Below are positions 20,102 to 64,000 of a stretch of 64,000 bases of DNA, piece by piece. A program made the translations under genes and the position numbers. The stretch is from a virus. Where the stretch lies: the IMG/VR virus record IMGVR_UViG_3300043451_000043. One strand, 5' to 3'. Under the pieces are notes generated by a model, which searched no databases, had not been told where the DNA came from, and was given only the letters and a program-made list of their open reading frames with translations. Position 1 is the first letter of the stretch; the number at the start of each line of letters is the position of its first letter.

Positions 20102-20104
20102 GAT

Positions 20105-20893
20105 GTGGACCCAATCAGTCTTCTCCTCATGGCGCAAAGCGCAGTCGGTGCTATCCGCGCTGGCTGCCAAATGCTGTCGGAAGGCAAAGCTGAGATCAGC
20201 AAGTTCAAAAAGCAAGTTGAGGGCGGCATCGCCGACGCGAAAGCGATCTACAAAGAGGTTACGGGTATCTGGGGTTGGGTCAAATCTTTATTTGGTGCGC
20301 CTCAGAAACCTGTTGCAAGCGTTAAGCATGTTCCCGAAACCAACTTCGGGAACATCGAGCCACCCAAGCCTGTGGCGAAAAAGGCAAATCGCCAACCGGA
20401 ACCAGAGTTAAGTTATGAGGAGTTTCAAGCGCGTGCGGTGCACGACATCTGCGAAAATTTAAAGGTCTACTTTGAGGCCATGAGGCATCTCAAAGCACAT
20501 TGTCGGGAACTCGAAGAAGAGGCTCTCACCACCGAGAAGGTTGCCGATAGTGCGATTGACCGCATTGAAATCCAGTGGCAGATGCAACAGCTTTCTGCCC
20601 AACTCAAGCAGGCCATGATTTATGGCACGCCTAGAGAGCTGGGGCTTGGTGCGATGTATGAGGATTTCCTCATCAAGTACGACGAAATTGTTGAGGCGCA
20701 AGAGGTAGCCCGGGCAGTCAAGGCTAGAAACGAAAGAAACAAGGCATGGCAACGCGAGCTTCTCAAACATCATCGAATCGACCGAACAATAGCGGTAGTG
20801 GCAATTCTGGTAATGGTGGCATGGATGTGGGGCATAGTGCTATCGCTCGCATGGCTCGTGAAGACACCCAATGGTTTATCGTCGCTGTTGTGA
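20105..20893 (+). CDS. hypothetical protein with C-terminal TM segment
   Basis: GTG start. 262 aa, coiled-coil, hydrophobic C-terminus. Confidence 0.4.
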   Translation: MDPISLLLMAQSAVGAIRAGCQMLSEGKAEISKFKKQVEGGIADAKAIYKEVTGIWGWVKSLFGAPQKPVASVKHVPETNFGNIEPPKPVAKKANRQPEPELSYEEFQARAVHDICENLKVYFEAMRHLKAHCRELEEEALTTEKVADSAIDRIEIQWQMQQLSAQLKQAMIYGTPRELGLGAMYEDFLIKYDEIVEAQEVARAVKARNERNKAWQRELLKHHRIDRTIAVVAILVMVAWMWGIVLSLAWLVKTPNGLSSLL

Positions 20894-29287: not shown

Positions 29288-29288
29288 C

Positions 29289-32200: not shown

Positions 32201-35096
32201 GTCAAACAAGGCGTTCCAGAAAGAACTGCAAAAGATTACCTACCGCCGCGAGAACGCTTTCACCGCGTTTGCCAAATCCGTGCTGCGCATCTTGGGCATC
32301 TCCCCCACCGACCAGAACACCGCACTGGGCTCTGCCCTGATCTCGGTTGAAGCTGTCATGGGTGAAGGCCGCCGCCTGCAAGAATCCGCCAAGGGCACGA
32401 ACGTCGAAGGCTCTCTCGACAATATCGCCAACGTGTGGGGTCAGGGCACACTGGATGCCATCCGCCAGATTCAAGATGCTGTCGGCTCCGATACCCCCGA
32501 ACAAGTTGGTGGGGTAATGGAACAAGCGTTGAGCGGTATCAAGCGTGCGCGTGAGAAGACAGGTATCTTGGCGGCGTTCCGCCAAGCCGCCGTGAACAAG
32601 TACGCCACCGTGGAATCCAAGGTTTCGCAGATGTTCTCGCAAGGCGTGCGCGATGCGTTCGGCAACCTGAACCCGATGTTGCTGGTGCGCCAAGCTGACG
32701 ACAGTGCCAAGACCATCATGGACTTCTTCCGCGCTGGTGGTATCCGAATCAACAAAGATGGTTTGGTAGAAACCTTCGACACCGACGCATCCGCAACACA
32801 GGCGCTCAAGGAAATCCAAGCGTTTGCAGAAGCCGAAGGCATGGACTTCGACAAGGCGAAGAAGGACATCTCCACCGTGTTGGAAGGCCACCGCCTGCAC
32901 TCAATCCGCGAGTTCAACAACCAGCTTGAGCAGTCAGCCAAGATACTGGAAGCCCAAGGCAAGAACAAGCAAGCCGATGCAGAGCGTGCCCGCAAGATTC
33001 GTCTGCACATGACGAACCAAGAGATCGACACGCTCGAAGAAATCTACCAATCTACCCCCCGCATCCAGAAGGTGCAGGAAGTGTTCAACGCAACCCGCGG
33101 TCAAGCGATTGACTTGATGGTGGCCAGCGGCCGCATCACCAAAGAGCGCGGTGAAGATTGGAAATCGAACTCTGCCTACGTGCCGTTTGACCGTGTGCTG
33201 GAAGACATTGGCCCCAACCCTATGCCACGTGGCAAGGGCTTGGCCGTACTCGGCAGCGACCCAAAGATCAAAGGCTCGATGGAGAAGCCAATCAAAAACG
33301 CCATCGACTCGTACATGAACACCCTCGGCTGGATGGTCGAAGATGCCATGAAGAACCGCGCTGCGGTCGAGTTGCTGGAAACTATGGCCGGTGTTGGTTA
33401 CGCTGAGAAGCACGCCAAACCTAGCATGGCCAAGAATGAAAATCTCGTGGTGCCCCGCCTATTCCAAAACGGCGAGCCTGTGTACTTCGAGGTGCAGAAC
33501 GAGTTCGATATGGCTGCGTTCCAGCAGGCCCCAGAGATGACCAACTGGCTCATCAAGGGTCTGGCCGCCACCTCACGATTCATGCGCACCAGCGTCACGG
33601 CAATGCCACCATTTGCGGTCAAGCAGGTGCTGGAAGACGCGACCCGTGCTGCCATGTATTCCGGCGTGGAGCGCCCACTTGTTGTGGCAATGAAGACTTT
33701 GTACAACCTGCCCCGCACCTTCTATGGTGAGTGGACCGGCAAGAAGTCTCCTATGGTCAAGCGCATGGAAGAGTTGGGCATCATCGGTGACTTCGACTTC
33801 AACATCTACCAGCCAACCACCGAGATCGAAAAAGAAATCGGCGCAAAGAAACGTGGCACCGCGGGCACGATCTTCCACAGGCTCGAACAGTTCACCAAGG
33901 CATCTGACTTGGCCGCACGCTTGGCTGTGTACGAAGAGACGATGCGCGACACCAACGGCGACGAAGTGCTGGCCCAGACCCGCGCACGCGAACTGATTAA
34001 CTTCAACCGCCGTGGTTCGTCAGGTACCATGAACACGCTGTCCCGCGTGATTCCCTTCTTCAACGCGTACGCCCAAGGCTTGGATGTACTGTACCGTTCA
34101 GCGTCTGGTATCGACTCGACCAGCTCGATCGAACGTGGTGCAGCACGTCGTTTGTTCTGGAGCCGTGTTGGCATGATGACTGCCTTCGGCATGATGTACG
34201 CCTTGGCCATGTCGGGCGACGACGGCTACGAGAACGCAACGGATGACGTGCGTGACAACAACTGGATTCTGCCCGGTGGCTTCAAACTGCCTGTGCCAAA
34301 AGAATTGGGCTTCATCTTCAAGGTCATCCCAGAGCGTGTCGTCGAATACGCCAAGCGTTCTGGTACCCCAGAAGAGCAGAGCGTAGCTGAAGCGGTCACT
34401 GGCGTGCTCAAGTCGGCGCTGTCCACCTACGGTATGCCAAACACTGTGCCGTCCACCATCCGCCCTGTGCTGGAGAACATGACCAACTATTCGTTCTTCT
34501 TGCAGCGTGAGTTGGAATCCACCTCGATGCAGGGTAAGGAGCCCGGCCAGCGTTACACATCCAGCACATCTGAGTTGGCCAAGGCGATCGGTGAAGCCAC
34601 TAACATGTCGCCAATCAAGATCGACAACCTCATCCGCGGCTGGTTCGGTATGGTTGGTTCGACTACCCTGCTGGCTACCGACGCGATGTTGAACCCAACA
34701 CGCCCTGACCGCCCGATCTACCAGATGCCGTTTGCCAGCATCTTCTTGTACGACACGATTGGTGGCCGCGCCAAGAATGAGTTCTACGACGTTCAGAACA
34801 AGGCAGCGCAGGCTGAGAACACCTTCAACGATCTGCTGGAGAAGGACCCTGCCAAGGCTGAGAAATACCTTGAGAAAAACGAGGCTCTGATTAACGCAGC
34901 ACCGGTGCTGAACTCATCTCTCGAAGAGCTGTCCAACTTGCGCCGATTGCGCCTAATGGTGGAGCAGGGTACCGACGAAGAACTCGGCATGGATGGCGCG
35001 GAACGCCGCAAGTTCATCGACGAGATTCGCCAAAACGAAAACGAGTCCCTGCGCTACGTGCGCGAGTTGAAAAAGCAAATCAACGACGCGCAATAA
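29289..35096 (+). CDS. giant virion protein (~1935 aa) with zincin-like HExxH motif
   Basis: ATG at 29289 right after the previous stop. N-terminal ~900 aa A/E/K/Q-rich coiled coil. HELVH at 32025-32039. Last gene of the + block. Confidence 0.55.
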   Translation: MAYSIRLPDGSLVQNIPDNIPPHEAKAQILQSRPEFGDTKRSWGEAAGDIGASALSGLGSLAQLPGQAYGLATGDFDTGILQGAKKLSKFGESLKSEGLQAREAKRDIKVAEAEKNGQLSAFGTSFAETVKDPALFTSFLAEQLPQLFVPGSAAMGAGRMAFAKAVASGAGEKAATAAAVAAGTAAAKGAGAVQQGADVGAQAYEDLYKRLVKDGKSKEEAAAQAIGLARATGASAAAISWLAQGLPGAQALEKALAGGATKSGIAKAFAAGAAGEGVSEMVEEGGGKFSQNLAMRDIDPTQALMQGVGATAGQAAVGGVGMGGAAGAISSGRGRPDVAQVAKAANVPASDLEKANNERILRQQQEQLSAAQGKEARAGEKLLAAEDADLAAQAAADSKARGEALAAQEAELRAKREADLQAAFPSDYQDVMAGANAYAELFKEKQSLEGERKTKEVRARIAQLDARMLEITEADTRVASAVAQLQKDQEKLAKAAGFPAKKSAKAMENAPAQMEMREALDVPTQPQTDLFGNPLQVAPDEATPTAGDLLDGVPMTTQNLEDAGLGPTRKEMVAAGQRNLFQQRQPRGGKTSTPTQADTGLEQAVTTEEQPVTEPKKVEKPVALTPETVPTTVTPDVLGALGIGRTATIRKADHGIMGKDIADPAQAGEVKSILEAYKEGRSAPIQQKIDAYLARPEFQAAAPTAPTTTGETNARPVKQKGRGASVPAPVETDTGSAAPAVAESERAGMVPVGQDVGADTGRKAKSAAPVNMFEQLVQKEKAPEEGTTPDTTLKSLPDDVEAEVPVHLRPWGGVQLWRPESQGAEAMTDVQAALQEKARAGDVRGALQAILDAPAGVYNELDKLVAKRLLAASSLPTLEVVAAKEGSPDGTYDAVNDHVQLTEGSVGSHTLLHELVHGFVHRMIALHEGGISKNLHIGNLRQLYDFIAKQHPELVKTYGMTNLSEFASEVMSNKAFQKELQKITYRRENAFTAFAKSVLRILGISPTDQNTALGSALISVEAVMGEGRRLQESAKGTNVEGSLDNIANVWGQGTLDAIRQIQDAVGSDTPEQVGGVMEQALSGIKRAREKTGILAAFRQAAVNKYATVESKVSQMFSQGVRDAFGNLNPMLLVRQADDSAKTIMDFFRAGGIRINKDGLVETFDTDASATQALKEIQAFAEAEGMDFDKAKKDISTVLEGHRLHSIREFNNQLEQSAKILEAQGKNKQADAERARKIRLHMTNQEIDTLEEIYQSTPRIQKVQEVFNATRGQAIDLMVASGRITKERGEDWKSNSAYVPFDRVLEDIGPNPMPRGKGLAVLGSDPKIKGSMEKPIKNAIDSYMNTLGWMVEDAMKNRAAVELLETMAGVGYAEKHAKPSMAKNENLVVPRLFQNGEPVYFEVQNEFDMAAFQQAPEMTNWLIKGLAATSRFMRTSVTAMPPFAVKQVLEDATRAAMYSGVERPLVVAMKTLYNLPRTFYGEWTGKKSPMVKRMEELGIIGDFDFNIYQPTTEIEKEIGAKKRGTAGTIFHRLEQFTKASDLAARLAVYEETMRDTNGDEVLAQTRARELINFNRRGSSGTMNTLSRVIPFFNAYAQGLDVLYRSASGIDSTSSIERGAARRLFWSRVGMMTAFGMMYALAMSGDDGYENATDDVRDNNWILPGGFKLPVPKELGFIFKVIPERVVEYAKRSGTPEEQSVAEAVTGVLKSALSTYGMPNTVPSTIRPVLENMTNYSFFLQRELESTSMQGKEPGQRYTSSTSELAKAIGEATNMSPIKIDNLIRGWFGMVGSTTLLATDAMLNPTRPDRPIYQMPFASIFLYDTIGGRAKNEFYDVQNKAAQAENTFNDLLEKDPAKAEKYLEKNEALINAAPVLNSSLEELSNLRRLRLMVEQGTDEELGMDGAERRKFIDEIRQNENESLRYVRELKKQINDAQ

Positions 35097-35175: not shown

Positions 35176-35403
35176 TTACGCCGTGCGCCAGATGCGAACC
35201 CCCCACATGCCATTCTCGACACGCGCTTGGTACTTGGTCTTGTAGCCAAACTGACGGGCCCGCATCCGAATAGACGTGGCCACGCTGCGGTCGTCAAGGC
35301 AGGGGATGAAGAAGGACGAGCCCACTATGAACTCGCCCCACTCGATCTTTATTTGGACGCCCAGTACCTCAAGCGGCTTGGTCGTCTTCATTGGCCTTGG
35401 CAA
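35176..35403 (-). CDS. small hypothetical protein
   Basis: 75-aa ORF between the primase stop and the terminator. Overlaps the primase 3' end. Confidence 0.3.
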   Translation of the reverse strand: MPRPMKTTKPLEVLGVQIKIEWGEFIVGSSFFIPCLDDRSVATSIRMRARQFGYKTKYQARVENGMWGVRIWRTA

Positions 35404-38209
35404 TCACGGCATCGTGGTCGAACACGCGGCTCAGTGAGTCGTCAATCAGGATGGCGTTCACGGGTGGTGCAGATACCAGCATACCTTTAGCCATACGCTT
35501 CTTGACGGATTCCACGCGGATTCCATCGTTCTTCAAGGCGTTCAGCGTCTCGTGGTAGCTGACCTGATTCTTCGAACACCACTCCTTGAATTTCTTCTGG
35601 ACGAGGTACAGGCACTTGGTATCCATGTCATAACGAACCATCAGTTCATTACGCGGAGTCATAAGCGGTGGCTTCGGTAAACCGTTGTCCGCCGCGTTGT
35701 CGTGGCCAACCAAGATGCTGTTGATGTTCGAGTTGATGAACGAACCGATTGCAGATGTGCCGTCCACAGGGATAGCCTTCACGTCACCCTTGCCGCCGCG
35801 CAGGAACACGATGAGCCACTTGAAGATGCGTAGCACGTCCATGTCGATCAGGCCCAGCTTCTTGGCGATCAGGCCGCCTGTGATGGCAACTGCACCGATG
35901 GTGGACCAGAAGCGTTCGCGTTGGCCAAGGCCAGCGGCGGCATCCAACTTCAACTGCACGTCACGCAGGGTCTCCAACACCTCATCGAGATTGCTGACCA
36001 CATACTGCATGTAAATCTCACCGGCCATACCGAAGTTGTTGGGCAGCTTGCCGAACAGTGAATCAGTAAATTCCTTCGAGAAGTTTGCGTCGCGGGTGAT
36101 CTTCAATTCGATGATACGCATCAACTCACCCTCGGGGAATTCCTTGAGGGAGTACAGCTTGTCGTACAGGCTGCTGTTCGATGACGTGATGGCCAGCAAG
36201 CGCCACAACGTGTTGTTGATACGCTCGGCGTTGACCTGCGATTCCATACGGTTCTTGCCGCGCCCTTGGGTGATGGCGTAAGCCAACTGAGACACGACCT
36301 CTTCCTTCATGTTGGTCACCTCGTCGATCGTGACCGGCAGGTTGTTCATCACACCAAAGCGGAAAATCTTGGCGTTGTACGTATCGTCGTTCTGCAACAA
36401 CATGTCGAACGGTTGACCCCAGATGCTGTTGATCGCCATCTGCACGGTTGACTTGCCGGTGCCTGAGCCGGGGCTCATGAGGTTGACAATGCCGCCACGG
36501 ACCGGCGAGAACTTAATCAGCGGTGCGCCAAAGCCCAACAAGAACGCGAAACCTTGTGGTTCCATGCCGGGGTTGTCATAGAAGTTCACCACGGTCTTCC
36601 ACTCTTCCAGCGTGCCTTTCTTGGTCAGCATGGCGCAAGCCTGCATGATGCCTGTCGAGGGTGGGCTGTACTTGACGCCGTTCTTCGTGATCTCTCGGTC
36701 GCCCAAGATGAATGTGTTTTCGTCCGTCCACCCAAACTGGGTGCGTACCTTCTCTGCTTGTTCCATATTCTGTAATTCCTTTACCCAACGTGATACGTAG
36801 AACATGAGTTCGTTGACGGCTTTATCAAGCACGACCACACCATGCTCACCGACTGCATCGCGGAAACGGTCTTTTGACAGCGCGGCGGTCAGCGGGATAG
36901 AGAACTCACGCACCCCATCTTTTGGCAGGTGCAGACGCATCCATAGCACTTCACCCAATGCAGGGTCGTGCATACGCTTCACGACATAGAAGTCATTCTC
37001 ATAAACCAGCTTGTCGTTGTCGCCTTCTTTCTCAGCGTCAGAGCGGCGATACACGCCACCATACTTGCCACGGAAAAATGGGAATGGATATGACGGAATG
37101 TGATACGTGCGAAGGTCATGGGTCTCGGCATCTTCAGTGACAACGATGTTGTCTTCTTCGGTAGCTTCGGCAATCTCTTTGCCCAGCACGATTGGTGAAC
37201 CAAACTTGCCGTGGTGTTTGCAGTCTGCGCAAACCTTTGGGCGCAACGAATTGAAAACGTCACAGGTGTAAGGCCCCTTGGTTTGGCCAGCCTTGTACTC
37301 GGTCTCACCACGGTCGTAGGACGCGTGCTGGTCAGAGATAGTGTGGATAGCTTCGTCACGGTCAACGCAGTGTTGCGCAATCGAGAGGCCAGCTCGCCAT
37401 AGAGGTTCTTCGATGTCATTCTGCTCCTCCAGTATGTGGTTGAGCTGCGCACAACCTTCCAGCTTCAACATGATGATCTTGCTGAAACGGTAGGTGTTGT
37501 TTTTACCCATCAACGTCTTGCTGGTCTCATCCATCTCAGTTTGGCGGAGGTGCTCTGGGATGTCAAAGGGCAATGCGTTCGTAGGCTGGCTTGTCTCGGG
37601 TGCACCGAGGGCTTTTGCAAACTCAATCAGGTCAATCAAACCGAAGCCAGCGATGTACTCGACAGGCAAGGGGTTCGATGGGTCTTTGTAGTTGAGGGTG
37701 TCAGGCACGCGCAGGATGCGTGCGGTGTCAGTGGTACAGGCAGGGTCGGCTTCGAGGCCGCGCTCCACACAAACTTCTTTCAGGCGTTTCGCTACAGGTA
37801 ACCAGACATCCTTTGAAATTGCTTCTGGCAGCACCCAATACGTGTGTACCCCTCTGCCTGAGTTGATGCAGATGGGTTGTGGGAGATTGAGGTCGGCACA
37901 GAATTGGCCGAGTGCTGCGATTGCGTCTTCGCGGGTGGGGTAGGGCTTGTTGTCACCGCAGTCCAAGTCCAACCAAAAGGCTTTCAGTTGGGTGACGTTG
38001 GACGCTAGGCGACGTGGGTTGTCAGATTGTTCGAACGATGCGGGTGCGAAATATACGTCAGCACCTGCTGCATACATTTGGTCAATCTGAACCTCAAGCG
38101 AGGGGATGTCATTGGCGAACCGTGCGCGAACCTTGCCTTGCATAATCCCGACGGCGCAATACAAACCAGAGTCGGCAAGCACTGCTGTCAGGAATTCGTT
38201 TTTTGTCAT
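35369..38209 (-). CDS. primase-polymerase (Prim-Pol) fused to SF3 (D5-like) helicase
   Basis: N-terminal FWLDLDCGD (DxD) and SGRGVHTYW (sGxGxH) Prim-Pol motifs. C-terminal Walker A NLMSPGSGTGKST and Walker B-like VTIDEVTN. Confidence 0.7.
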   Translation of the reverse strand: MTKNEFLTAVLADSGLYCAVGIMQGKVRARFANDIPSLEVQIDQMYAAGADVYFAPASFEQSDNPRRLASNVTQLKAFWLDLDCGDNKPYPTREDAIAALGQFCADLNLPQPICINSGRGVHTYWVLPEAISKDVWLPVAKRLKEVCVERGLEADPACTTDTARILRVPDTLNYKDPSNPLPVEYIAGFGLIDLIEFAKALGAPETSQPTNALPFDIPEHLRQTEMDETSKTLMGKNNTYRFSKIIMLKLEGCAQLNHILEEQNDIEEPLWRAGLSIAQHCVDRDEAIHTISDQHASYDRGETEYKAGQTKGPYTCDVFNSLRPKVCADCKHHGKFGSPIVLGKEIAEATEEDNIVVTEDAETHDLRTYHIPSYPFPFFRGKYGGVYRRSDAEKEGDNDKLVYENDFYVVKRMHDPALGEVLWMRLHLPKDGVREFSIPLTAALSKDRFRDAVGEHGVVVLDKAVNELMFYVSRWVKELQNMEQAEKVRTQFGWTDENTFILGDREITKNGVKYSPPSTGIMQACAMLTKKGTLEEWKTVVNFYDNPGMEPQGFAFLLGFGAPLIKFSPVRGGIVNLMSPGSGTGKSTVQMAINSIWGQPFDMLLQNDDTYNAKIFRFGVMNNLPVTIDEVTNMKEEVVSQLAYAITQGRGKNRMESQVNAERINNTLWRLLAITSSNSSLYDKLYSLKEFPEGELMRIIELKITRDANFSKEFTDSLFGKLPNNFGMAGEIYMQYVVSNLDEVLETLRDVQLKLDAAAGLGQRERFWSTIGAVAITGGLIAKKLGLIDMDVLRIFKWLIVFLRGGKGDVKAIPVDGTSAIGSFINSNINSILVGHDNAADNGLPKPPLMTPRNELMVRYDMDTKCLYLVQKKFKEWCSKNQVSYHETLNALKNDGIRVESVKKRMAKGMLVSAPPVNAILIDDSLSRVFDHDAVIAKANEDDQAA

Positions 38210-42470: not shown

Positions 42471-43145
42471 TTACTTTCTTCCACAGTGAGCGCACTCGCT
42501 CACCCAGCAGTAATTTTTACACAAACCGTTGGGTTTTGCATTCCAAACTCCACTGCTATATGCACCTTCCAGCATGGTGATGGTTGGCATCCAGTTGCCC
42601 CAGTAACGGTGCTGTTGCTGGGCTTCGTAGACAGCGGGCACAAACTTACCTTCGGTCAGGAACAGCAGGCCGCCTTTGACCTTTGTGATGTTTGGCCAAC
42701 GCTTAAACACGGCCAAGGCCATGAGTTCGAGCTGGCTCACGTCAGCGTAGCGGCTCTTGCCCATCTTGTAGTCGATGACACGGGCTTCGTTCTTCTCGTG
42801 GTCGATGATGAGCAGGTCGGCCACGCCACGGAACCAGCAGTCAGCCGCAAAGAAGTCACATGGTTCCAACGCTTCGGTCAATGCGAACTTGATCTCGCAG
42901 TGCTTTTCGCCGGGGATGCGCTTCAATGCGTCCAAGGGTTCCTGCATGAAGTCGAACTTCGGGGGGATGGGTGTGCCGTCCTTGATGTAGAACTCGGCGG
43001 CACTGTGTGCCTCCTTGCCGTACATCGCCGCTTCGCCTTCGGGCTCTTTCACATCCTTGAGTACACGCGTGTGGTAATACTTCTTGGGGCAAGTGGTAAA
43101 AGTTTTCAGGCTAGAAAACGACCATGCTGGAATCTTAGCAGTCAC
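42471..43145 (-). CDS. PD-(D/E)XK nuclease with C-terminal Fe-S Cys cluster (Cas4/RecB-like exonuclease)
   Basis: ADLLIIDHEKNEARVIDYKMGK is a D...E-x-K type motif. CKNYCWVSECAHC terminal cysteines. Confidence 0.6.
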   Translation of the reverse strand: MTAKIPAWSFSSLKTFTTCPKKYYHTRVLKDVKEPEGEAAMYGKEAHSAAEFYIKDGTPIPPKFDFMQEPLDALKRIPGEKHCEIKFALTEALEPCDFFAADCWFRGVADLLIIDHEKNEARVIDYKMGKSRYADVSQLELMALAVFKRWPNITKVKGGLLFLTEGKFVPAVYEAQQQHRYWGNWMPTITMLEGAYSSGVWNAKPNGLCKNYCWVSECAHCGRK

Positions 43146-45024
43146 CGTACGACACTCCCATACCGCTTTCGCAGTTCACTGGTAAACCTTCTGCCCATGA
43201 TGGCGTCCAACGCATACACGTCTCAACGTAATCACGAGCCTCGTCAGACTCTTCATGCCGCGCAACAATGCCGATAGCATCGTGAACCGTGAGGACCACT
43301 TTGTATCGCTTGGCAATCTTTAACATCTGTTCACCGATGATACACCGCGCTATTGCTTGTGTGAAGTTTTCTACGACCTTTCCACCATAAATCTTGTTCG
43401 CGCCTTTTCGTGTTGTGTACTGAAACTGACGCTTACCTTCGGCGTCTACAACTTCTTGCAAGCCGTTGTAGAAAATGTGCAGGCCGTTCGGAAGCAAGAT
43501 GCCGTGTTCGTCCACGGTCAGCAAGCCATCGCGGCCGAGGGTCATCGTCTGCCCACGTACCATGCACCGTAGGGCTTCTTGCGACTCGCGCCAGAGCTGG
43601 GGGATTCGAGGATACGTCTCACGGTACGTTGCGATAATCCGCGCAGCTTCCGCTGTGTCAATCTCAGTGCCAAAAGTTTTGAGTTGAGCTTGGAACTTGG
43701 GCCCTCCCATACCGTAGCCAGCACCAAGAATGGTTGTCTTACCCACAAATCTCTCCGGCGCATCAACAGCAGCAACCGGTTTGCCGTAGATTGCCGATGC
43801 CATGATCTTGTAAACGTCATCGCCATTTGCAAACGCTCCTACTAAGTCGTCTTGATTGGCCTCCCACGCAAGCGTGCGGGCCTCGATTTGAGATGAGTCA
43901 GCGTCGATGAAGACGTAACCCTCTGGGGCCACGATGGCCTTCTTGAGCTTGCCTGCGTTCGCGCCACGGCTCGGCAGGTTCTGCAAGTTGATTGAGTCAG
44001 TACCACCCCAACGGCCAGTGTGCGCCGCGTAGTATTTCAACGGGATGGGGAACGGCCCGCGCTTTGAGATGTCGATGAACCGCTGGGTGCGGGTCTCTTC
44101 CAGCGTGGATTTAGTGCCCAGACGAGCTGCGCACAATGCCTGCACCCGTGTGTCGGGATGCTCCAGCAAAGCCTTGAAGCCTTCGTCCGTCTTGGCAAAC
44201 GCCCACGTCTCTTTGCCTGTGGTCATGCTGATCTTGAGCGGGGGGTTCACGCCCAAACCTTTCAACATCTCAGCAAACTGTGGGTTGCTCATCAACGTCT
44301 TGCGCACCGTGGCCTTGGTTTCCTCGTCACCCAAAATGTGCTTGACCGCCAACTCTTTGTGCCCGATGGACTGCAAAGCGTTGACTAGGTGGTTGGTCTT
44401 CTGCGCGGCGGTGTCAGCCAAGTGCATCTCAAGGCTCTTGGTATCGAGCTTCAACACGGGGTGGATGAACATGCTCAGGGTCAGGTCAATCAGCTTGAGT
44501 TCCATCTTAGGGAACCCAGCAGCCATCATCTTGTTGAAGATGAGGTACGTCAGCTCAACGTCCTTGCGGCAATACTGACCGTAGTTGTGCAGCTCCATCT
44601 GTGTGAAGTTGCGGAGGTGTTTGCCCTTGGCGTCGTTCACCTCGGTGCCCTTTTCCCCCACACCGTAGCGCAACGACATGTTGGCCAGAGATACGCTGGC
44701 ATCCACACCGTGCAGAGCGCGGCCCATCGACATGGTATCTAGCCAGCCTTTGGGTTTGATGCCGTACAGCCACGACAGAATCGCGCCATCGAACATGGCG
44801 TTGTGAGCCAGCACAAGTGAGTCAGACCAAGGCAGCATGGCCAAGGCAGCTTCGATCTCAGGCCCCGTACCTGTCACCCAGCGCGTGATGCCGTCGTCGA
44901 TCTTGTAGGCAAAGCCAATGGTCTCGAAGTTCGGGCTACGCACGTACTCCTCAGTGCTGATCTTGCTCAGGCTGTACTCTTGGTCATAGTACGTCTCGAA
45001 GTCGATTGTGATGAGGTGTGTCAT
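43135..45024 (-). CDS. DNA polymerase, family A (3'-5' exo plus pol, no 5' nuclease domain)
   Basis: Exo I IDFETYYD. Motif A DADSSQIEAR. Motif B RFVGKTTILGAGYGMG. Motif C VHDAIGI, a variant of HDE. Confidence 0.75.
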   Translation of the reverse strand: MTHLITIDFETYYDQEYSLSKISTEEYVRSPNFETIGFAYKIDDGITRWVTGTGPEIEAALAMLPWSDSLVLAHNAMFDGAILSWLYGIKPKGWLDTMSMGRALHGVDASVSLANMSLRYGVGEKGTEVNDAKGKHLRNFTQMELHNYGQYCRKDVELTYLIFNKMMAAGFPKMELKLIDLTLSMFIHPVLKLDTKSLEMHLADTAAQKTNHLVNALQSIGHKELAVKHILGDEETKATVRKTLMSNPQFAEMLKGLGVNPPLKISMTTGKETWAFAKTDEGFKALLEHPDTRVQALCAARLGTKSTLEETRTQRFIDISKRGPFPIPLKYYAAHTGRWGGTDSINLQNLPSRGANAGKLKKAIVAPEGYVFIDADSSQIEARTLAWEANQDDLVGAFANGDDVYKIMASAIYGKPVAAVDAPERFVGKTTILGAGYGMGGPKFQAQLKTFGTEIDTAEAARIIATYRETYPRIPQLWRESQEALRCMVRGQTMTLGRDGLLTVDEHGILLPNGLHIFYNGLQEVVDAEGKRQFQYTTRKGANKIYGGKVVENFTQAIARCIIGEQMLKIAKRYKVVLTVHDAIGIVARHEESDEARDYVETCMRWTPSWAEGLPVNCESGMGVSYGDC

Positions 45025-55792: not shown

Positions 55793-55810
55793 GATTTCCT
55801 ACCGGTAGGA

Positions 55811-56272
55811 TTAAGCAGTGCGCAAGATTTCGATCTTGTTCGTGGTCTTGTTGGTGCACACCTTGTGCGAGTCATTGCCGAAGCACTTGGCCGCAGCGTT
55901 GGACACCGTACTGAGCAAGTCGTGCAGATTCACGTCACACATAATCATCTCAGGGGTCAAGCCAATCTCGGCCACATCACCAACCTTGAGGCATTCAACG
56001 TAAGGCAAGACTGCGTTGCGCATCGAACCGTATGGCATTTTCAAAGCGCGGCGTTTGGCTTCTTTTTTGGGGGGCTTGGCGGCCACCAGTTCCAAAGAAC
56101 CCTGCGTGATAGTCGTGCCATCGCTCAAGCGAATGATGTACTCAGTACCAGCCACAGCCAGTAGGCGCAGCGCCTGCTCGATGGTACGTTTGACAATCTC
56201 AGGCGCAGTAGATGCGGCGAGAGTAGGGTTTGTTACTTGGTTCACGGTGCGTGAGTTGTTTGCGTTTGTCAT
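55811..56272 (-). CDS. hypothetical protein
   Basis: 153-aa ORF, RBS GGAGA. Confidence 0.45.
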   Translation of the reverse strand: MTNANNSRTVNQVTNPTLAASTAPEIVKRTIEQALRLLAVAGTEYIIRLSDGTTITQGSLELVAAKPPKKEAKRRALKMPYGSMRNAVLPYVECLKVGDVAEIGLTPEMIMCDVNLHDLLSTVSNAAAKCFGNDSHKVCTNKTTNKIEILRTA

Positions 56273-57865: not shown

Positions 57866-58099
57866 TCATTTCCTTTTTAACATTAGGTAAGTGATGATCT
57901 TGTCGCTGTGCTTGGCCACTTCGTGCCACATCTCAGCGGGTAGCAAGGTCTTGCCTTGGTTGCTCTCGTTCAGCGAGTTGTCGCTGTTGAGCGTGTAATG
58001 TGCGCTGTACATCGTCATCTTCTTCCAGTAGTAGATGCGCACGTAGTTGTCTTTGTCGTACACATATACGCTCAGCTTGCCCCATTTGAAGTCACTCAT
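57866..58099 (-). CDS. hypothetical small protein
   Basis: 77-aa ORF. Confidence 0.35.
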   Translation of the reverse strand: MSDFKWGKLSVYVYDKDNYVRIYYWKKMTMYSAHYTLNSDNSLNESNQGKTLLPAEMWHEVAKHSDKIITYLMLKRK

Positions 58100-58368
58100 C
58101 AGTTGCTACCCAGTATGAGTAGCACCCTCGCCTTGGGCAATGCCGCATCGAAGTAGGCTTGCACCCGCTTCGGTAGCCGTGGCACTTCCTCGAATGGTTC
58201 GGTGGTGTTCGGCGAGTATTGGTACATCGGTGCGCTGATAGCCAACGTCTCTTTGTCCCGATACAGGTGCATCTCCCACTCGCGTTTACGTACTGAGAAC
58301 TGCACCCATATGTCCACGTACTCAGCGTCTTGCGACATGTCGTATTCGAGCTTCACGTTACCCCCCAA
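58099..58368 (-). CDS. hypothetical small protein
   Basis: 89-aa ORF. Confidence 0.35.
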   Translation of the reverse strand: MGGNVKLEYDMSQDAEYVDIWVQFSVRKREWEMHLYRDKETLAISAPMYQYSPNTTEPFEEVPRLPKRVQAYFDAALPKARVLLILGSN

Positions 58369-58591
58369 GAATCAAAATGGTTTTCAGTTTGTCGAGATGC
58401 TTTTGTACCTCGATGCGGAATGGGCGCGGTGCGTCTTTGCAGATGACTAACCTTGGTGCGCTGTTCTCGATGAACATACTTGCGTGTGCAAACGGTACGT
58501 TGGGGTGATAGATGCTCAACCCATGTGAAGTACGCTCCACCCACATCGTGCCCGACAGGTGTATGGTTTTTGTTGGGTGTCCCATAGTCAT
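58358..58591 (-). CDS. hypothetical small protein
   Basis: Start at the internal Met (MTMGHP) with ATGA coupling. Confidence 0.3.
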   Translation of the reverse strand: MTMGHPTKTIHLSGTMWVERTSHGLSIYHPNVPFAHASMFIENSAPRLVICKDAPRPFRIEVQKHLDKLKTILILGG

Positions 58592-58872
58592 CCTTTCAGT
58601 ATGGCCAGCGCCTGCGCTTTGGTTAGCGCGGCTTTGAATACAGGCTCGGCTTCTTCGCACACGCCGTTGACCTCACGCCAAGTATTCGTGCGGTTGTAGT
58701 CTTTCTTGCTCATCATCCAAGTGCCATCAGGTTCAACGAACGCCATGTATTCCACGTGTGTCTTTGTCGTTGTGGTGTAGCCAATGCGGATGCAAGAGTG
58801 GTTTGCGAACTCATCGTACGCAATGCTGATTACCACCCATTGCTTCCTAGCTGGAACAATTACTTTTGCCAT
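58588..58872 (-). CDS. hypothetical small protein
   Basis: 94-aa ORF. Confidence 0.35.
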   Translation of the reverse strand: MAKVIVPARKQWVVISIAYDEFANHSCIRIGYTTTTKTHVEYMAFVEPDGTWMMSKKDYNRTNTWREVNGVCEEAEPVFKAALTKAQALAILKG

Positions 58873-58873
58873 A

Positions 58874-59959
58874 TCACTGTGGCATGTGCAAGGTATCGAA
58901 CACAGTACACAACACGCTGTCCATGTCGTGCGTCTCGGCGAGTGCTTGCCAACGCTTGATAGCCTTGGGCGTGATCTTCTTCTTGTCGAGGAACTTCAAC
59001 GCGAACTCAGGGTCTTCGGGGTACACAGACTCAGCGGCCATCCACAACAACTCGTCAGGCCAACCGAACTCTGCGTCAGTCAACGCGTCTTGCAAGATGC
59101 CCGTGCCAAGCATGTCATCGTCATACGAAGAAAGCCACCAGTTCTTCTTGCCGAACGCAGAGCCTTGGTACTTGTCCTCGACCTCACCAGCTTTCCTACT
59201 CGTAGGAAGTTTGTCCCACTTGATGTTGAGCACAGCTTCACTCAATGCAATGAAGTGTTGAATGTCGAGGGACTCGTGTTCGCTATGCTCACGGGCGTAG
59301 CCTACCGATATGTTGGTGCATTCGGGGATGATGTCAACGAACTCGGCTGTGTCGGTATAGACACCGCTGTCGTCAGGCAGATACATCATGCGCTCGTCTG
59401 CGTTCAATGCGTCAGCTAGTGCTTGGCCAAACGCATCAGAGCAACAACGACCCCACCCTTGGTGTGTGATAACGCTGTCGATACCACGGCGGTCAAAGGC
59501 AATGGCTCGGTCGAACTCACCCAGTAGGTCAGCGTGATGCTCGGCGATATGCTTGGCACCGATGCCGCCACATTCCTCACCCTGCGAGAAGATGTAATAG
59601 CCAGCCACGTCATTGTGAATCAGGTGCATGAGCATTGCACAGCCAGCGCCGTCATCTGCGCCGAGTGGTGCGCCATTCGCGTGCCAATGTGTATCGGTCT
59701 TGCGAATCTTGTTAGCACCTACCTCACGATGCACTGTGTCAACGTGTGAGATGAACAAGGTACGGCTGTCACCATCGTGTCGATTGTCTACGTGCAGGTT
59801 GTCGCAGTCATCGAGGAACGCACGTTCAGCGAGATGCACAGGTAACTCTTGCCACAGCCATTGCGTAAAGAAGTCAACGCTAGGTGTATTGTGTGGTCGC
59901 TTCATAGACAGGCCACGAGCGAGAGTTGTATAGAGGATAGAGTGTTTGTTGAATGTCAT
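58874..59959 (-). CDS. M20/M28/M42-type zinc metallopeptidase-like protein
   Basis: ISHVDTVH (HxDTV), GADDGAG (resembles GADDKAG of peptidase T), SQGEECGGIGA (EE-x-G). Confidence 0.45.
   Translation of the reverse strand: MTFNKHSILYTTLARGLSMKRPHNTPSVDFFTQWLWQELPVHLAERAFLDDCDNLHVDNRHDGDSRTLFISHVDTVHREVGANKIRKTDTHWHANGAPLGADDGAGCAMLMHLIHNDVAGYYIFSQGEECGGIGAKHIAEHHADLLGEFDRAIAFDRRGIDSVITHQGWGRCCSDAFGQALADALNADERMMYLPDDSGVYTDTAEFVDIIPECTNISVGYAREHSEHESLDIQHFIALSEAVLNIKWDKLPTSRKAGEVEDKYQGSAFGKKNWWLSSYDDDMLGTGILQDALTDAEFGWPDELLWMAAESVYPEDPEFALKFLDKKKITPKAIKRWQALAETHDMDSVLCTVFDTLHMPQ
59193..59208. repeat. palindrome TTCCTAC-TC-GTAGGAA (intragenic copy)
   Basis: Perfect 7+2+7 inverted repeat inside the M20-like gene. 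Confidence 0.45.
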
Positions 59960-59990
59960 GATAGTTTCCAGTTGCGGTTAAATTAAAAAG

Positions 59991-60005
59991 TCCTACGTGT
60001 AGGAA
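59991..60005. promoter_or_regulatory. palindrome TCCTAC-GT-GTAGGA (operator/promoter-like site, copy 1)
   Basis: Inverted repeat in the 46-bp spacer upstream of the 58874-59959 gene. Confidence 0.5.
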
Positions 60006-61463
60006 TTACTCAGCGGTTTCGCTGGCTTCGTCTTGCTCAGGTGCATCGTCAGGGTGGTATGTCTCACCATCCACAGTCACAGGCTCGACTTCGCTGTATA
60101 GGTAGTAGTCGGATGTGGCGTAGCATTTCCATGCGTCATCCTCATGCGCCCACTCACCATCGTGCAGTTGCACACAGTTCTTGACTAGGCGGTACTCGCT
60201 GTCGTGTTCGCAGTAGCAGACACGATCATCGTCAGTGGCATACCAATCACCGTCAATACACACGGCGTCATCTTCGGCGCACAGGTCACCGTTATCAAGG
60301 CGCACGAGGCTGTTGTCATCGAGATAGTCGGTGTCTACGTATTCATCCCAGCCCTCGACCCACTCAACGTTGTCCTCGTGGATGTAGCGTTGGTAACCGT
60401 GTCGGCTGTACGCATAGCGGTAGTTGTTGTCAACACACGATGAACACACATGGCTGTCCTCGTCTGCGCCAACCCAGTAGCCGTCACCATCATCGAAGCG
60501 GGTGCCACAGTCCTCACATTCCTCGCTGCCAGCTTCCTCAGTCGTGCCGTCAGTTTGGTTGCAGGTGTAGTCACCGCAGTCAGCGATGAACAAACCCACA
60601 GGCTTGCCATCTACGAACTCAATGTCAACCTCTTGGTTGCAGCCATCGAGATACGGTGCGAGGAAATCTTCGGGGTTGCGGCCACGTGATACGTACTTGA
60701 GCTTGGTGCCCCACGCATAGCCACCACAATGTGCATACCCCTGAGCCTTGAGCCATGCGGCCAGCGTCTCGTCAGCGTTGCTATACCCACCATGCGGGTC
60801 TTTCTTGTAGGTGCGGACGAAATACTTGTTGCCATGCTGGTCGGTGTTGCACAGCGCACGACCCACGGTGTCGCCGTCATAGATACGCACAGCCATGTGC
60901 CAGCCCAAGGTTGGGCAATAGGTTTCGTAGGGGTGACGGCCAGCGTCAGCGCCCCACACCATGCACGAGCGTGGGCCTTTGAGCAGGTGGTAGAGCATTT
61001 CCGCTGTGGTGTGTACGAACTTCATGTCGCTGTTGCTATGCAACGCAACCAAGTCACGCAGTGCATGGTCAGGCAGCATGGTGAAGTGCGCACGTAGGTA
61101 CTTGCCGATGGATGTGACTACCTGACGGTCAGCCTCGCCACTACGCTCGTCCCGTGTGTAGGCCAAGCGGGTGGTGTCAGTCGTGGATTCATGCGGCCAT
61201 TGCAAGAGCAACAGTTGCCAATCGTCAGGCCGTGACATACGCAAAGCCTTACGCACGATGGGGTGCAGTGGATAGCGTTCTTGCTCACGTTGGTGCCATG
61301 CACGTGCTGGTCGTGCGATATACGGCTCACCTAATAGGTGGCGCTGTTGGTACTCAGACCACACATATCGGCGGTCTACCCGTGCGGTGCGCAGGATGCG
61401 AGCGGCTTGGTTAAAGATGTTTTCCATATCATCGGCGTTGTAGCCGTGTTCGATGTATTCCAT
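60006..61463 (-). CDS. hypothetical Cys-rich, highly acidic protein
   Basis: 485 aa. C-terminal half D/E/C/Y-rich with multiple CxxC pairs. Confidence 0.45.
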   Translation of the reverse strand: MEYIEHGYNADDMENIFNQAARILRTARVDRRYVWSEYQQRHLLGEPYIARPARAWHQREQERYPLHPIVRKALRMSRPDDWQLLLLQWPHESTTDTTRLAYTRDERSGEADRQVVTSIGKYLRAHFTMLPDHALRDLVALHSNSDMKFVHTTAEMLYHLLKGPRSCMVWGADAGRHPYETYCPTLGWHMAVRIYDGDTVGRALCNTDQHGNKYFVRTYKKDPHGGYSNADETLAAWLKAQGYAHCGGYAWGTKLKYVSRGRNPEDFLAPYLDGCNQEVDIEFVDGKPVGLFIADCGDYTCNQTDGTTEEAGSEECEDCGTRFDDGDGYWVGADEDSHVCSSCVDNNYRYAYSRHGYQRYIHEDNVEWVEGWDEYVDTDYLDDNSLVRLDNGDLCAEDDAVCIDGDWYATDDDRVCYCEHDSEYRLVKNCVQLHDGEWAHEDDAWKCYATSDYYLYSEVEPVTVDGETYHPDDAPEQDEASETAE

Positions 61464-61497
61464 TTGGATTCCCCTTTCAGTTGCGATAAAGATGTTT

Positions 61498-61513
61498 TTC
61501 CTACGGGTAGGAA
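61498..61513. promoter_or_regulatory. palindrome TTCCTAC-GG-GTAGGAA with adjacent ATAAAGATGTTTTT box
   Basis: Perfect inverted repeat 35 bp upstream of the 60006-61463 gene start. Confidence 0.55.
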
Positions 61514-61514
61514 G

Positions 61515-61733
61515 TTAGGTTGTCCCACCCTTATGGGATGAGTTGAGCCCTTTGAGCAGGGCGTGGTCGGTCACCACGATGTAGTTGCTCTTGGGCATTG
61601 GCACGATGGTGTGCTTCTGTGCTTTGGCCAGCTTCTCGCCGCAGGTCATGCAGGTTCGAAAGCCCAGCTTGGCGCGTGCTGGTGGCACACGCTCGGCATA
61701 ACAGCAGGTGCAGATCAGGTTGTGGTAGTGCAT
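61515..61733 (-). CDS. small zinc-finger protein
   Basis: Start at MHYHNL (same 5' UTR as the 60006-61463 gene). ICTCCY...CMTCGEK. Confidence 0.4.
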   Translation of the reverse strand: MHYHNLICTCCYAERVPPARAKLGFRTCMTCGEKLAKAQKHTIVPMPKSNYIVVTDHALLKGLNSSHKGGTT

Positions 61734-62070
61734 TTGGATTCCCTTCAGTTGCGATGGATTCCCCTGCCGTTGGCAGGGTGGTGCGGTATGCACCGCAAGG
61801 CTGTCTCATAACCAGCCTCACGTTGAATACAGTTGTGTATTGTTGTCCGCTGTACTGTCTCATAACCAGTATGCGCTCGGTTTACATTTTGTTTTGTCGC
61901 TTGTATTGCTTTTCTTGATGTGCTGTTACCACACACCAAGGCCGACTGACTACGGCACGCCTTCTCGCTGAACATTGATGGAATGAACCCATGTGCCAGC
62001 TTCTGTATTTACAGCGGCGGTTTTGTTTACCTGATTGGGGTCAGGTGTGTATAAGATGTTTTTAAAGAAC

Positions 62071-62086
62071 TTCCTACGGGTAGGAA
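62071..62086. promoter_or_regulatory. palindrome TTCCTAC-GG-GTAGGAA with adjacent ATAAGATGTTTTT box
   Basis: Identical to the 61498 copy, with the same flanking box. Heads a ~340-nt leader. Confidence 0.55.
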
Positions 62087-62207
62087 ACTTGCCTACACCA
62101 TTCGAGGGCGATACCTCGACTAATTGGGTATATCTTAACACAGTAAAGGTACCTTGTCAAGTTGGGAAGGCCCAGTTTTGGGGGTTTGCGGCCCCACGGG
62201 CCACCAG

Positions 62208-62627
62208 TTATTCGACCCGCTTGATCTCAAGGTAGGCGCGTTTGTTGTATTCGAATCGGTTGGTGATGAAGGCTTTGTCGAAGTTGGTTCGCTGATAGCT
62301 GCAAGCCACGCGCAGGTTGTTGGCATCGACCATGTGCACCACGAGGTATTCGCCCACGGCCATCTTCTTCAGTTTGTACAGTGCCAGCTTGCGGTCAGGC
62401 TCAAAGAATTTGCTGACCATGTTCGAGCGCCGCGCCAGTTGGTTGCGGTCTTCGCGCTCTTGGGCTTGTGCATCGGTCTCACGCTGGCCGCTGTCTTCCA
62501 GCTCACGGTTCTTCTGCATGATCTCGCTGGACTGCAAGGCGCTGGCTCGTACATCATCAGGTATGTCGTGCAGGGTTGCAAATAGGTCGCCGAGGTCGGC
62601 GCTCAGGGGTGTGTGCTTGGTGTCCAT
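62208..62627 (-). CDS. hypothetical early protein
   Basis: 139 aa, RBS AAAGGAAC. Confidence 0.45.
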   Translation of the reverse strand: MDTKHTPLSADLGDLFATLHDIPDDVRASALQSSEIMQKNRELEDSGQRETDAQAQEREDRNQLARRSNMVSKFFEPDRKLALYKLKKMAVGEYLVVHMVDANNLRVACSYQRTNFDKAFITNRFEYNKRAYLEIKRVE

Positions 62628-62874
62628 GCAGGTTCCTTTACATTGTTAAGGGTGAGTGTTGTGGTAGTGTACCAGAAGTCCATTAGTGTTCCTAAACAGT
62701 CTAAGGCGTTCCAGCCATGTTCTCTAAGCGATAGGAACGGTGAAACGATAATAGAGGTGAGTGGATGTTGACGCTGAGTTGCGTTGCCCACAAAAAAGTC
62801 TAACTAAGTCTAATTTCTGCGGGGTGCGTTTGGCGTTTTTTGGGATGGCGCTCTACCAGACGAACGGACGGAAA

Positions 62875-62890
62875 TTCCTACTAGTAGGAA
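62875..62890. promoter_or_regulatory. palindrome TTCCTAC-TA-GTAGGAA
   Basis: Perfect inverted repeat in the right-end noncoding region. Confidence 0.5.
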
Positions 62891-62945
62891 CATTTACATA
62901 GTAAAGATACCAAAAAGCCCAGCGCCATTTTGGAAATGCCAGAAT

Positions 62946-63000
62946 TATTAGAGAGAGAGATAGATATATATATAAATAGTAGTAGTAGTAGAAGAAAAAG
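62946..63000. repeat. microsatellite-like low-complexity tract (GA)5-(TA)n-(TAG)5-A-rich
   Basis: agagagagagatagatatatatataaatagtagtagtagtagaagaaaaag. Confidence 0.7.
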
Positions 63001-63029
63001 CCCCTGCCAAACATTGCCAACTAATGCAA

Positions 63030-63135
63030 AACATGATTAAACATGATGTTCCGATATACCACTTGGAACGCGTGGGTACAAATTAGACAAATTAGGAACG
63101 CGTAGTTGCGTTGGAACGGCCTAGTTGCATAGGTG
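63030..63135. repeat. iteron-like direct repeats
   Basis: AAACATGAT x2, ACAAATTAG x2, GGAACGCGT x2 plus GGAACGG, TAGTTGC x2. Confidence 0.5.
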
Positions 63136-63220
63136 CATCGGAGCCAAGAAGCCACCAGTTACCAGTTCCCTGAAAGATGGGCGCAAAAAAGCCCGCAGGG
63201 CGTAAACCATGCGGGCAATA

Positions 63221-63251
63221 AAAAACCCCGCTTGCGCGGGGTCTGTGGTTT
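63221..63251 (-). terminator. rho-independent terminator
   Basis: CCCCGC-TTGC-GCGGGG stem with A-run on the + side and T-run on the - strand, directly downstream of the stop of 63269-63736. Confidence 0.6.
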
Positions 63252-63268
63252 TTCCTACGCGGTAGGAA
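63252..63268. promoter_or_regulatory. palindrome TTCCTAC-GCG-GTAGGAA
   Basis: Between the stop codon and the terminator of the 63269-63736 gene. Confidence 0.5.
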
Positions 63269-63736
63269 TTATTCCGAAATTTCGTACCCGTTCGCCGTCA
63301 AATAATCGGCGATGCAACCTGCCAAAGTGTCGGCCTTTGCGTCATCGTATGCGCTTTGAATTTCGGCGGCGAATGTTGCGAAGCCATCGGCACTAAACAT
63401 TTTTGCAACAAACGCGGCGAATTCGGGCGCGGCCTTTTCTTTGCCTTTGCCTTTGGCGCTACCTTTGGATGCACTGAAAGAAAATGGCACATCATCGTTC
63501 ACGGCGGCGACAAACGCCGTCACATAATTGGCGTAAGTCTTGGCCGTTTTGCCTTTGAACGCGGCGGCCATTGCATCCATCAAGGCCATGCGATTCGAAC
63601 AAGTGGCCTTTGACTTTCCAAACTTAACGCCCGCTTTGCGAAGCTCGGCAACCTTTGTTGCGATTATTTCCAAAGCGTTAGCGCCCGCGTGAATGGCGAT
63701 GGCGGCTGACTTGATGGTGTCGATAGAGTTTGTCAT
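63269..63736 (-). CDS. hypothetical early protein (A/K-rich)
   Basis: Start at MTNSIDT with RBS AAAGGGGAA. 156 aa. Confidence 0.45.
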   Translation of the reverse strand: MTNSIDTIKSAAIAIHAGANALEIIATKVAELRKAGVKFGKSKATCSNRMALMDAMAAAFKGKTAKTYANYVTAFVAAVNDDVPFSFSASKGSAKGKGKEKAAPEFAAFVAKMFSADGFATFAAEIQSAYDDAKADTLAGCIADYLTANGYEISE

Positions 63737-63855
63737 AAGATGTTTCCCCTTTGGTATCGGTGGCATGAGTTGCCATACCTTGAACCGATGACTCTATTGT
63801 GCCTAAGTTTAATGCGTTTGTCAAGCGTTATCTATCGCGTGATGTTGTTTCGTGT

Positions 63856-63871
63856 TTCCTACCCGTAGGAA
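63856..63871. promoter_or_regulatory. palindrome TTCCTAC-CC-GTAGGAA
   Basis: About 120 bp upstream of the 63736 start. A TTGACA hexamer (on the - strand) lies ~35 bp further toward the gene. Confidence 0.5.
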
Positions 63872-64000
63872 AAAGTGACCAGTTCCCCGCGACCCCACCG
63901 CACCCCCACCATCCCGCTGGGGATTGGGACTCCGCCACTTCCCTTACATTGTGTTACACACGAACGATGACCAGACAAAACCAAATTGGGCGCCCAGCCC

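Follow-up and report, generated by a model that had tools for sequence, protein, structure and literature searches.

The stretch analysed here, IMG/VR virus record IMGVR_UViG_3300043451_000043, comprises 64,000 nucleotides (nt; hereafter the window) and represents the nearly complete genome of a compact phage of about 64-65 kb. Its genes are arranged in two arms. The rightward arm, extending to about 35 kb, carries the large terminase (133-1677), the portal (1687-4188) and structural genes, and the leftward arm, starting from about 64 kb, carries a primase-helicase, an SNF2 helicase, a family-A polymerase (43135-45024) and many small early genes. Near the right end, two leftward genes that encode proteins of 139 and 165 amino acids (aa), p139 and p165, enclose a gap of about 640 nt (Table 1). 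An earlier note on this DNA, made without database searches, had seen in the gap both the largest non-coding stretch and a candidate replication origin. The first statement holds, as the gap is the sole large non-coding stretch and the next largest measures at most 176 nt, two unconserved open reading frames (ORFs) of 62 and 55 aa being left out of the ranking. Indeed, the small ORFs of the gap have no conserved translation, relatives giving low-complexity or antisense matches only, and independent gene calls in relatives leave the equivalent stretch empty. A search for tRNA and tmRNA genes found none. The GC content is 45 % in the gap and 53.6 % in the window, the latter lower than the roughly 56 % given earlier. 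Taken together with the results below, the gap is a real, conserved, origin-like cis-module that may fire as an origin.

Table 1. Features of the non-coding module and its surroundings, in window coordinates
Feature	Position	Strand	Remarks
Non-coding module	62628-63268		between start of p139 and stop of p165, both leftward
C-free AT-rich composite microsatellite (GA)5-(TA)5-(TAG)5-AAGAAAAAG	62941-63000		candidate DNA unwinding element
Left pentamer cluster	62688-62738		GTTCC 62688, 62708; GGAAC 62734
Right pentamer cluster	63048-63117		GTTCC 63048; GGAAC 63065, 63095, 63113
Tandem AAACATGATT x1.9 (AAACATGAT(T) x2)	63029-63047		aligned block of relatives is GACATGACAAGACRTRA
Degenerate 8-10-bp tandem array	63100-63139		GCGTAGTTGC, GCCTAGTTGC, ATAGGTGC; further copy 62773-62787
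Conserved box GCCACCAGTT-ACCAGTTCCC	63151-63170		CCACCAGTT invariant in 11/11 aligned modules
First tandem intrinsic terminator after p165	63213-63244	-	hairpin ACCCCGCGCAAGCGGGGT then T6; plus-strand T-run too
Second tandem intrinsic terminator after p165	63185-63216	-	hairpin GCCCGC...GCGGGC then T6
Palindrome TTCCTAC-TA-GTAGGAA	62875-62890		inside module
Palindrome TTCCTAC-GCG-GTAGGAA	63252-63268		abuts p165 stop codon; same position in relatives
Palindrome family copies	55796-55811, 59193-59208, 59990-60005, 61498-61513, 62071-62086, 62875-62890, 63252-63268, 63856-63871
Primase-polymerase/helicase, 946 aa, DUF927	35369-38209	-	candidate trans-acting initiator
p165, first early gene	63269-63766	-	likely true start 63736
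p139, gene downstream of module	62208-62627	-	other genes in its place in close relatives

The gap contains an AT-rich tract in which (AG)5 at 62950-62959 is followed by TAGATATATATATAAA, by (TAG)5 at 62977-62991 and by AAGAAAAAG up to position 63000. The (TAG)5 is the only repeat of period three or less that TRF finds in the window, and the longest run without one of the four bases, 60 nt free of C, lies within the tract. The tract is also the duplex stability minimum of the 64 kb at each scale considered, that is at 30, 50 and 100 bp (z 5.4, 5.8 and 5.1). Eighty related loci were fetched with the terminase as handle, and loci are cited here by L numbers; in at least 17 loci, no 40-mer of the entire locus is less stable than the equivalent tract, which is again microsatellite-like. 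Contigs whose p165 homologue is 94 % identical to that of the window mix (GA)n, (TA)n, (TTA)n, (TAG)n and (CT)n differently in their tracts. The strand asymmetry is strong and it flips: the plus strand is free of C in the window and in L015, and free of G in L002, L004 and L086/L087, and the minus strand of the window's tract closely resembles the plus strand in L004 and L086. The tract therefore tolerates slippage and inversion, not loss; its place and composition are constrained, and its sequence and orientation are free. This is what is expected of a DNA unwinding element; neither a coding sequence nor an RNA nor part of a promoter would be expected to behave in this way. The odd microsatellite is thus genuine and hypervariable, and the slipped-strand hotspot envisaged in the earlier note is correct insofar as the tract evolves fast by slippage and inversion, its place and composition being nonetheless maintained.

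Some contigs end tens of bases from AT tracts or from the C-rich stretch upstream of p165 (L012, 22-69; L033, 20-60; L053, 44-84; and the starts of L086, L088 and L089). Such ends could reflect assembly breakage at low-complexity or strain-variable DNA, or could be a hint of physical ends; the hypervariable tract is a likely cause of contig breaks.

Short repeats are found on both sides of the tract. The pentamer GGAAC/GTTCC occurs 10 times in the gap against 0.98 expected (p 9e-8), its extension TAGGAAC occurs four times against 0.04, and of all 300-nt windows in the 64 kb, the two richest in the pentamer both fall inside the gap. Four pentamers lie within 300 nt to the left of the tract and five within the same distance to the right. 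The right cluster also includes ACAAATTAG twice in tandem (63078-63095), and GGAACGCGT is present at 63065 and 63095 with GGAACGG at 63113. A second family is represented by the degenerate tandem array, with TAGTTGC at 63103 and 63122 and AGTTGCGTTG at 62778 and 63104; relatives have three to six clearer RTRGTTGC copies where the window has this degenerate array. The strict form TTGC[AG]T[AG] is not enriched in the module of the window (1 against 0.44 expected) and is enriched in that of several relatives, and CGCAACT shows no enrichment across the window (14 against 12.9 expected). Tract, repeats, the AGTTGCGTTG pair and two palindrome copies are all present where they had first been listed. 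As to the clustering of direct repeats, exact 9-mers are only modestly above chance, with six pairs against 0.87 expected, a value reached in 20 of 2000 shuffles. Of the repeats, it is the GGAAC pentamers and the degenerate TAGTTGC array that matter, and most of the individual 9-mers do not. The longest repeat units in the gap measure 8-10 bp in two or three copies, and tandem, helically phased iterons of 17-22 bp were not found. The complement of the AGTTGCG repeats of the module, CGCAACTG, is also found on the minus strand at 59970-59976 and 61479-61485, 15-25 nt upstream of two early-gene starts and each time just after a palindrome; it is not enriched window-wide.

To the right of the array lies the conserved box, whose ten bases GCCACCAGTT recur at 56084, 59136, 62202 and 63153 and, as GACCAGTT, at 63877, that is in the leftward arm and on the plus strand only. 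Read on the minus strand, the box gives ACTGGTGG, which we take to resemble E. coli Chi and keep as a lead only: Chi-like 8-mers number four against two expected, and the single 10-mer in common with Rhizobium phage RHph_TM3_14A is expected by chance. A sigma-54 promoter in TGGAAC-N-TTGC was considered and rejected by eye, the spacing being off by at least one base.

The same module is present at the same place in more than 20 independent metagenome contigs. Nucleotide similarity to the relatives is lost between about 62100 and 63180, with flanks that align and spacing that is kept. One architecture is common to L004, L009, L013, L015-L017 and L020-L023; it recurs in L002 with a different palindrome and, in looser form, in L024, L025, L059 and L066. 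Along the plus strand, the blocks follow in the order of downstream-gene start, GGAAC/AGAAC words, palindrome, AT-rich tract, AACATGA-type words with more GGAAC, RTRGTTGC tandem array, CCACCAGTT box, two terminator hairpins, palindrome and stop of the p165 homologue. At least 17 loci have more GGAAC than expected within 300 nt of the tract, with the highest counts in L066 (13 against 1.0 expected) and L059 (14 against 2.1). Module, block order and composition are kept where the terminase of the relatives is only 65-87 % identical, and the non-coding blocks are better conserved than the neighbouring protein. A nucleotide query with 62000-64000 against 50,697 phage records gave zero matches, and a description of the module was not found in the literature searched.

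Two cultured phages, distantly related and equipped with the same replication genes, carry a comparable gap. In Pseudomonas phage Rollin (L082), whose primase-helicase is 31 % identical to that of the window, nt 1-1450 are non-coding, with a run of N in the record; here three copies of TTGCATACT directly adjoin a (TAA)5 tract, the 50-mer with the lowest stability in the genome (z 5.8), and inverted TTGCATACT copies lie on the other side of the tract. RHph_TM3_14A (L091) has the same replication gene set and a 770-nt gap (19355-20125) that directly follows its first early genes; the four 40-mers of lowest stability in the 60.9-kb genome all fall in this gap. Rollin has its own palindrome family, and the gaps of both phages hold short tandem repeats and palindromes of their own (AAAAGGTAG-N7-CTACCTTTT). 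A characterisation of either gap was not found in the literature searched.

In relatives, a divergent control region between p165 and a terS-like gene lies past what corresponds to the right end of the window (L021, 9085-9400; L022, 3300-3600; L004, 9080-9400; L002, 7840-8120). It contains a palindrome, the box, C-rich runs, a conserved GGAGTCCCGT block and a second AT tract, as well as an inverted GTTCC/GGAAC pair (GTTCCAGAAC or GTTCCGGAAC) just upstream of a rightward TTGACA-N17/18-TATATT promoter.

A candidate for the protein acting on the module is encoded by the phage itself. The 946-aa product of the primase-helicase gene matches primase-polymerases in its N-terminal part and carries a helicase domain of the DUF927 type (PHROG primase/helicase families, PF06048). 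Its helicase part matches Cch of the staphylococcal cassette chromosome mec (SCCmec; PDB 5DGK, 3e-7), a protein of the Staphylococcus aureus pathogenicity islands (SaPI; 8TCH, 5e-7) and NCBIfam Cch1. The predicted model of the C-terminal 292 residues (alignment of 29 homologues, pLDDT 71) matches significantly only two folds, that of Cch and that of the SaPIbov1 'initiation of replication protein with helicase activity', with probability 0.99-1.0; a winged-helix part is suggested only by weak matches (E about 1) to HSF and TcpK domains.

On these grounds, we put the chances at about even that the gap is a replication origin, or the main site of initiator binding and unwinding, that also holds the promoter of the next operon. 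The 946-aa protein, as a self-loading initiator-helicase of the Cch/SaPI Rep group, would bind the short repeats flanking the tract, namely the GGAAC/GTTCC pentamers, to which the TAGTTGC array with the CCACCAGTT box may have to be added. It would assemble at these repeats and open the tract, the least stable duplex, upon which its primase-polymerase domain would prime and the family-A polymerase would extend. The two tandem terminators would keep transcription of the first early gene out of the site, and a promoter directed leftward, situated in the left third of the gap, would drive the next operon and may help opening. Binding, melting and priming, together with the choice of the true iteron family, are what we infer. 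The divergence point of the two gene arms is about 1-1.5 kb away from the module, and forks leaving the module would run mostly co-directionally with transcription. Thus, of the origin layout originally proposed, a melting element beside iterons, the architecture is real, statistically supported and conserved, with a plausible initiator encoded; the origin function itself is the part that stays conditional.

The design has known counterparts. In SaPI origins, 6-12 iterons of five or six nucleotides flank an AT-rich centre on either side; they are recognised by a winged helix in the C-terminal domain of the initiator, whose helicase is self-loading (PMC9371898). The module of the window fits this arrangement in outline. 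In SaPI and SCCmec, the element's own helicase doubles as initiator, and it is this group that the primase-helicase of the window matches by sequence and by C-terminal fold. The window differs in the extra 8-10-bp tandem array, in the conserved box and in the fusion of the helicase to a primase-polymerase within a 64-kb lytic-type phage, besides the distance and orientation discussed below. The design itself is known, and what is unusual here is a hypervariable, invertible unwinding tract.

Other origins offer more partial parallels. In lambda ori, P1 oriR and RK2 oriV, repeats lie beside an AT-rich unwinding region, and nearby transcription helps lambda firing. The iterons of lambda and of theta plasmids are, however, 17-22 bp long and in phased tandem, and the lambda origin is located inside the initiator gene, whereas the repeats of the window measure 5-10 bp and are dispersed, without DnaA boxes. 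In the core origin of SV40 and polyomaviruses, GAGGC pentanucleotides in both orientations lie beside an AT tract and are bound by a helicase that is both initiator and transcription regulator. A parallel can be seen in that GGAAC occurs in the module and, in relatives, at the rightward promoter as well; no homology is claimed, since the window helicase belongs to a Cch/MCM-like group and not to large T antigen, and its layout is much looser. The T7 primary origin and T4 oriF/oriG are intergenic early sites with a promoter and an AT-rich element, in which composition matters rather than sequence. They use a transcript as primer and have no iteron arrays, and the tract of the window lies upstream, not downstream, of the likely promoter.

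Several observations weigh against an origin in the gap. Pentamer orientation is mixed (<<>> to the left and <>>>< to the right of the tract in the window, <<<><<>> and <>>>> in L066), a tendency with no clean rule, whereas an origin of the SaPI type would have two or more iterons per side in opposing directions. DnaA boxes (TTATCCACA, at most one mismatch) are absent from the gap, a result that is relevant only if the host initiator is used, the host consensus being not known. A distance of 25 kb separates the module from the primase-helicase gene, unlike in SaPIs, where the origin follows rep directly. The cumulative G-C curve reaches its minimum at 60791, which is 1.8 kb left of the gap, and its maximum at 2286, with a weak amplitude; the skew check that the earlier note had suggested thus neither supports nor refutes an origin. 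The local GC skew is highest in the gap (0.244), and the cumulative A-T extremes at 62854 and 35331 simply follow gene orientation. The gap, preceded by two terminators, needs a promoter in any case. GGAAC may be the site of a regulator or transcription factor, given the GGAAC pairs at the rightward promoter of relatives, and the divergent region described above, with its second AT tract, is itself a candidate for a competing origin or for a late-promoter control site.

Part of this evidence leads to the main rival, which we consider rather unlikely: a purely transcriptional control region made of terminators, the promoter of the next operon and GGAAC regulator sites, with the tract as a bendable or upstream-activating element. 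With two conserved terminators ahead of it, the gap must hold the promoter from which the next operon is transcribed. In these hairpins, compared across 11 sequences, 13 pairs are predicted, four of them with changes on both sides, that is compensatory changes. They are two tandem terminators of the minus strand and not the one bidirectional terminator initially described, as only the first has a T-run on the plus strand as well. On the minus strand, a -10 element of the TG-TACAAT type is found at aligned positions in four relatives; the GGAAC inverted pairs of relatives directly upstream of their rightward promoter, and palindromes of the TTCCTAC family near two sigma-70-like promoters in the window, also fit with transcriptional control. 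The position of the tract does not: it lies about 250-320 nt upstream of the gene start and well upstream of the -10 predicted in relatives, and it is inverted between close relatives without loss. In addition, a sigma-70-like promoter scan found none inside the window's own gap, and 640 nt are more than a promoter needs in so compact a genome.

The palindromes are treated here as a repeat family of their own, set apart because they are not specific to the module and because GGAAC persists where the palindrome is swapped. TTCCTAC-N1-4-GTAGGAA occurs in six exact copies and two with one mismatch against 0 expected, all between 55.8 and 63.9 kb and mostly at gene boundaries. In relatives, the arms are exact and the spacer varies. 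Other lineages have different arms at like places (GTCATAC in L002, CTCATAC in L066, GTTATAC in L027, CCTTACA in L025, TGTAGTC in L074); in L002, the copy corresponding to 63252-63268 is replaced by GTCATAC..GTATGAC. The 7-nt arms are thus uniform within a genome and change symmetrically between lineages. A p165 homologue was detected neither in L002, where the palindrome differs, nor in L058, where TTCCTAC is kept. As RNA hairpins, the palindromes are weak (-4 to -7 kcal/mol). Identical short palindromes repeated at the gene boundaries of a mosaic early region are presumably also what T4-type PeSL and bacterial REP elements represent; those of the window differ by their 7-nt arms, 1-4 nt spacer, weak hairpins and symmetric change between lineages. 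Hairpin promoters of the N4 type were rejected, as no virion RNA polymerase was found. In the 1971-aa virion protein (29181-35096), a 'large polyvalent protein' domain (LPD38) was recognised, and the N-terminal part weakly matches the families of N4 virion RNA polymerase and DarB-like proteins; a polymerase domain was not detected in this protein, its PHROG match is N-terminal only and a PDB match to the N4 virion RNA polymerase is missing.

It is very unlikely that the gap serves for packaging, marks a physical end of the genome or acts as an injection-related signal, with repeats read by the terminase or the ejection machinery as at a cos, pac or concatemer junction. On the circular map, the gap is about 1.5 kb from the terminase genes, T7-like phages have short repeat arrays near their ends, and contigs L012, L033 and L053 break tens of bases from AT tracts. 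Yet an opposite-strand gene (p165) and a second control region lie between the gap and the small-terminase-like gene, nothing links the repeats to the terminase, and assembly alone is expected to break at low-complexity or strain-variable DNA, which other contigs read through.

Ranking next, and highly improbable, is the explanation that the gap has no function of its own, being a hypervariable slippage tract at a recombination junction of early-gene cassettes or an assembly artefact. The tract does vary in repeat number and by inversion, and close relatives differ in the genes downstream of the module. This explanation is at odds with a module, block order and composition that are kept across the relatives, and with non-coding blocks whose conservation exceeds that of the neighbouring protein. 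The artefact, of assembly or engineering, that had been suspected at the outset is refuted: contigs from ENA and Logan with a p165 homologue 94 % identical to the window's also carry the module, which makes JGI, ENA and Logan three independent assembly sources in agreement. Finally, a non-coding RNA, for example a plus-strand transcript ending at a bidirectional hairpin, is scarcely credible: the plus-strand T-run of the first terminator and a plus-strand promoter-like match in the AT tract of one relative speak for it, but an Rfam 15 scan of 58000-64000 gave two sub-threshold matches only (E 0.28 and 0.4, the best far below the gathering score), and what is conserved are short words and composition, not paired regions, around a central tract that inverts.

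As for the flanking genes, the later start of p165 at 63736 is suggested because homologues begin nine codons further in. The gene has its own sigma-70-like promoter-like site (63824-63796) and the two terminators behind it. The predicted structure of the protein is all-helical with a Lys/Gly-rich linker; a fold search with the model gave no significant match, and an exact-sequence look-up returned nothing. None of p139, p165 and p485 had a match in PHROG, Pfam or NCBIfam, and a search for relatives with p139 retrieved one irrelevant locus. The genes directly downstream of the module differ (62208-62627 in the window, 5145-5992 in L084, 1220-1810 in L086) despite a p165 that is 94 % identical, and the module therefore lies at a boundary of exchanged early-gene cassettes. 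Among catalogued phages, the phage has no close relative: its terminase is 46 % identical to those of HTVC023P-type pelagiphages, and its family-A polymerase 35 % identical to those of Rhizobium and Pseudomonas phages.

A wider reading, which we regard as quite unlikely, is that a widespread, uncultured clade of double-stranded DNA phages, together with Rollin and RHph_TM3_14A, uses an origin of the SaPI/SCCmec style, in which a Cch-type helicase is fused to a primase-polymerase and the unwinding element is a strand-asymmetric, flipping microsatellite. The two cultured phages could serve as proxies for this idea. If it is true, the flip of the tract could set which strand is exposed for the first priming, and hence the polarity of the first fork. 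The design of short iterons around an AT-rich centre with a self-loading helicase would then be extended from staphylococcal islands to lytic-type phages. For annotation, the module carries a warning, in that a genuine hypervariable microsatellite likely breaks contigs. Origins are unknown for almost all uncultured phages, and for an entire clade of them, the module would provide a conserved cis-element that is easy to recognise, along with a candidate initiator.

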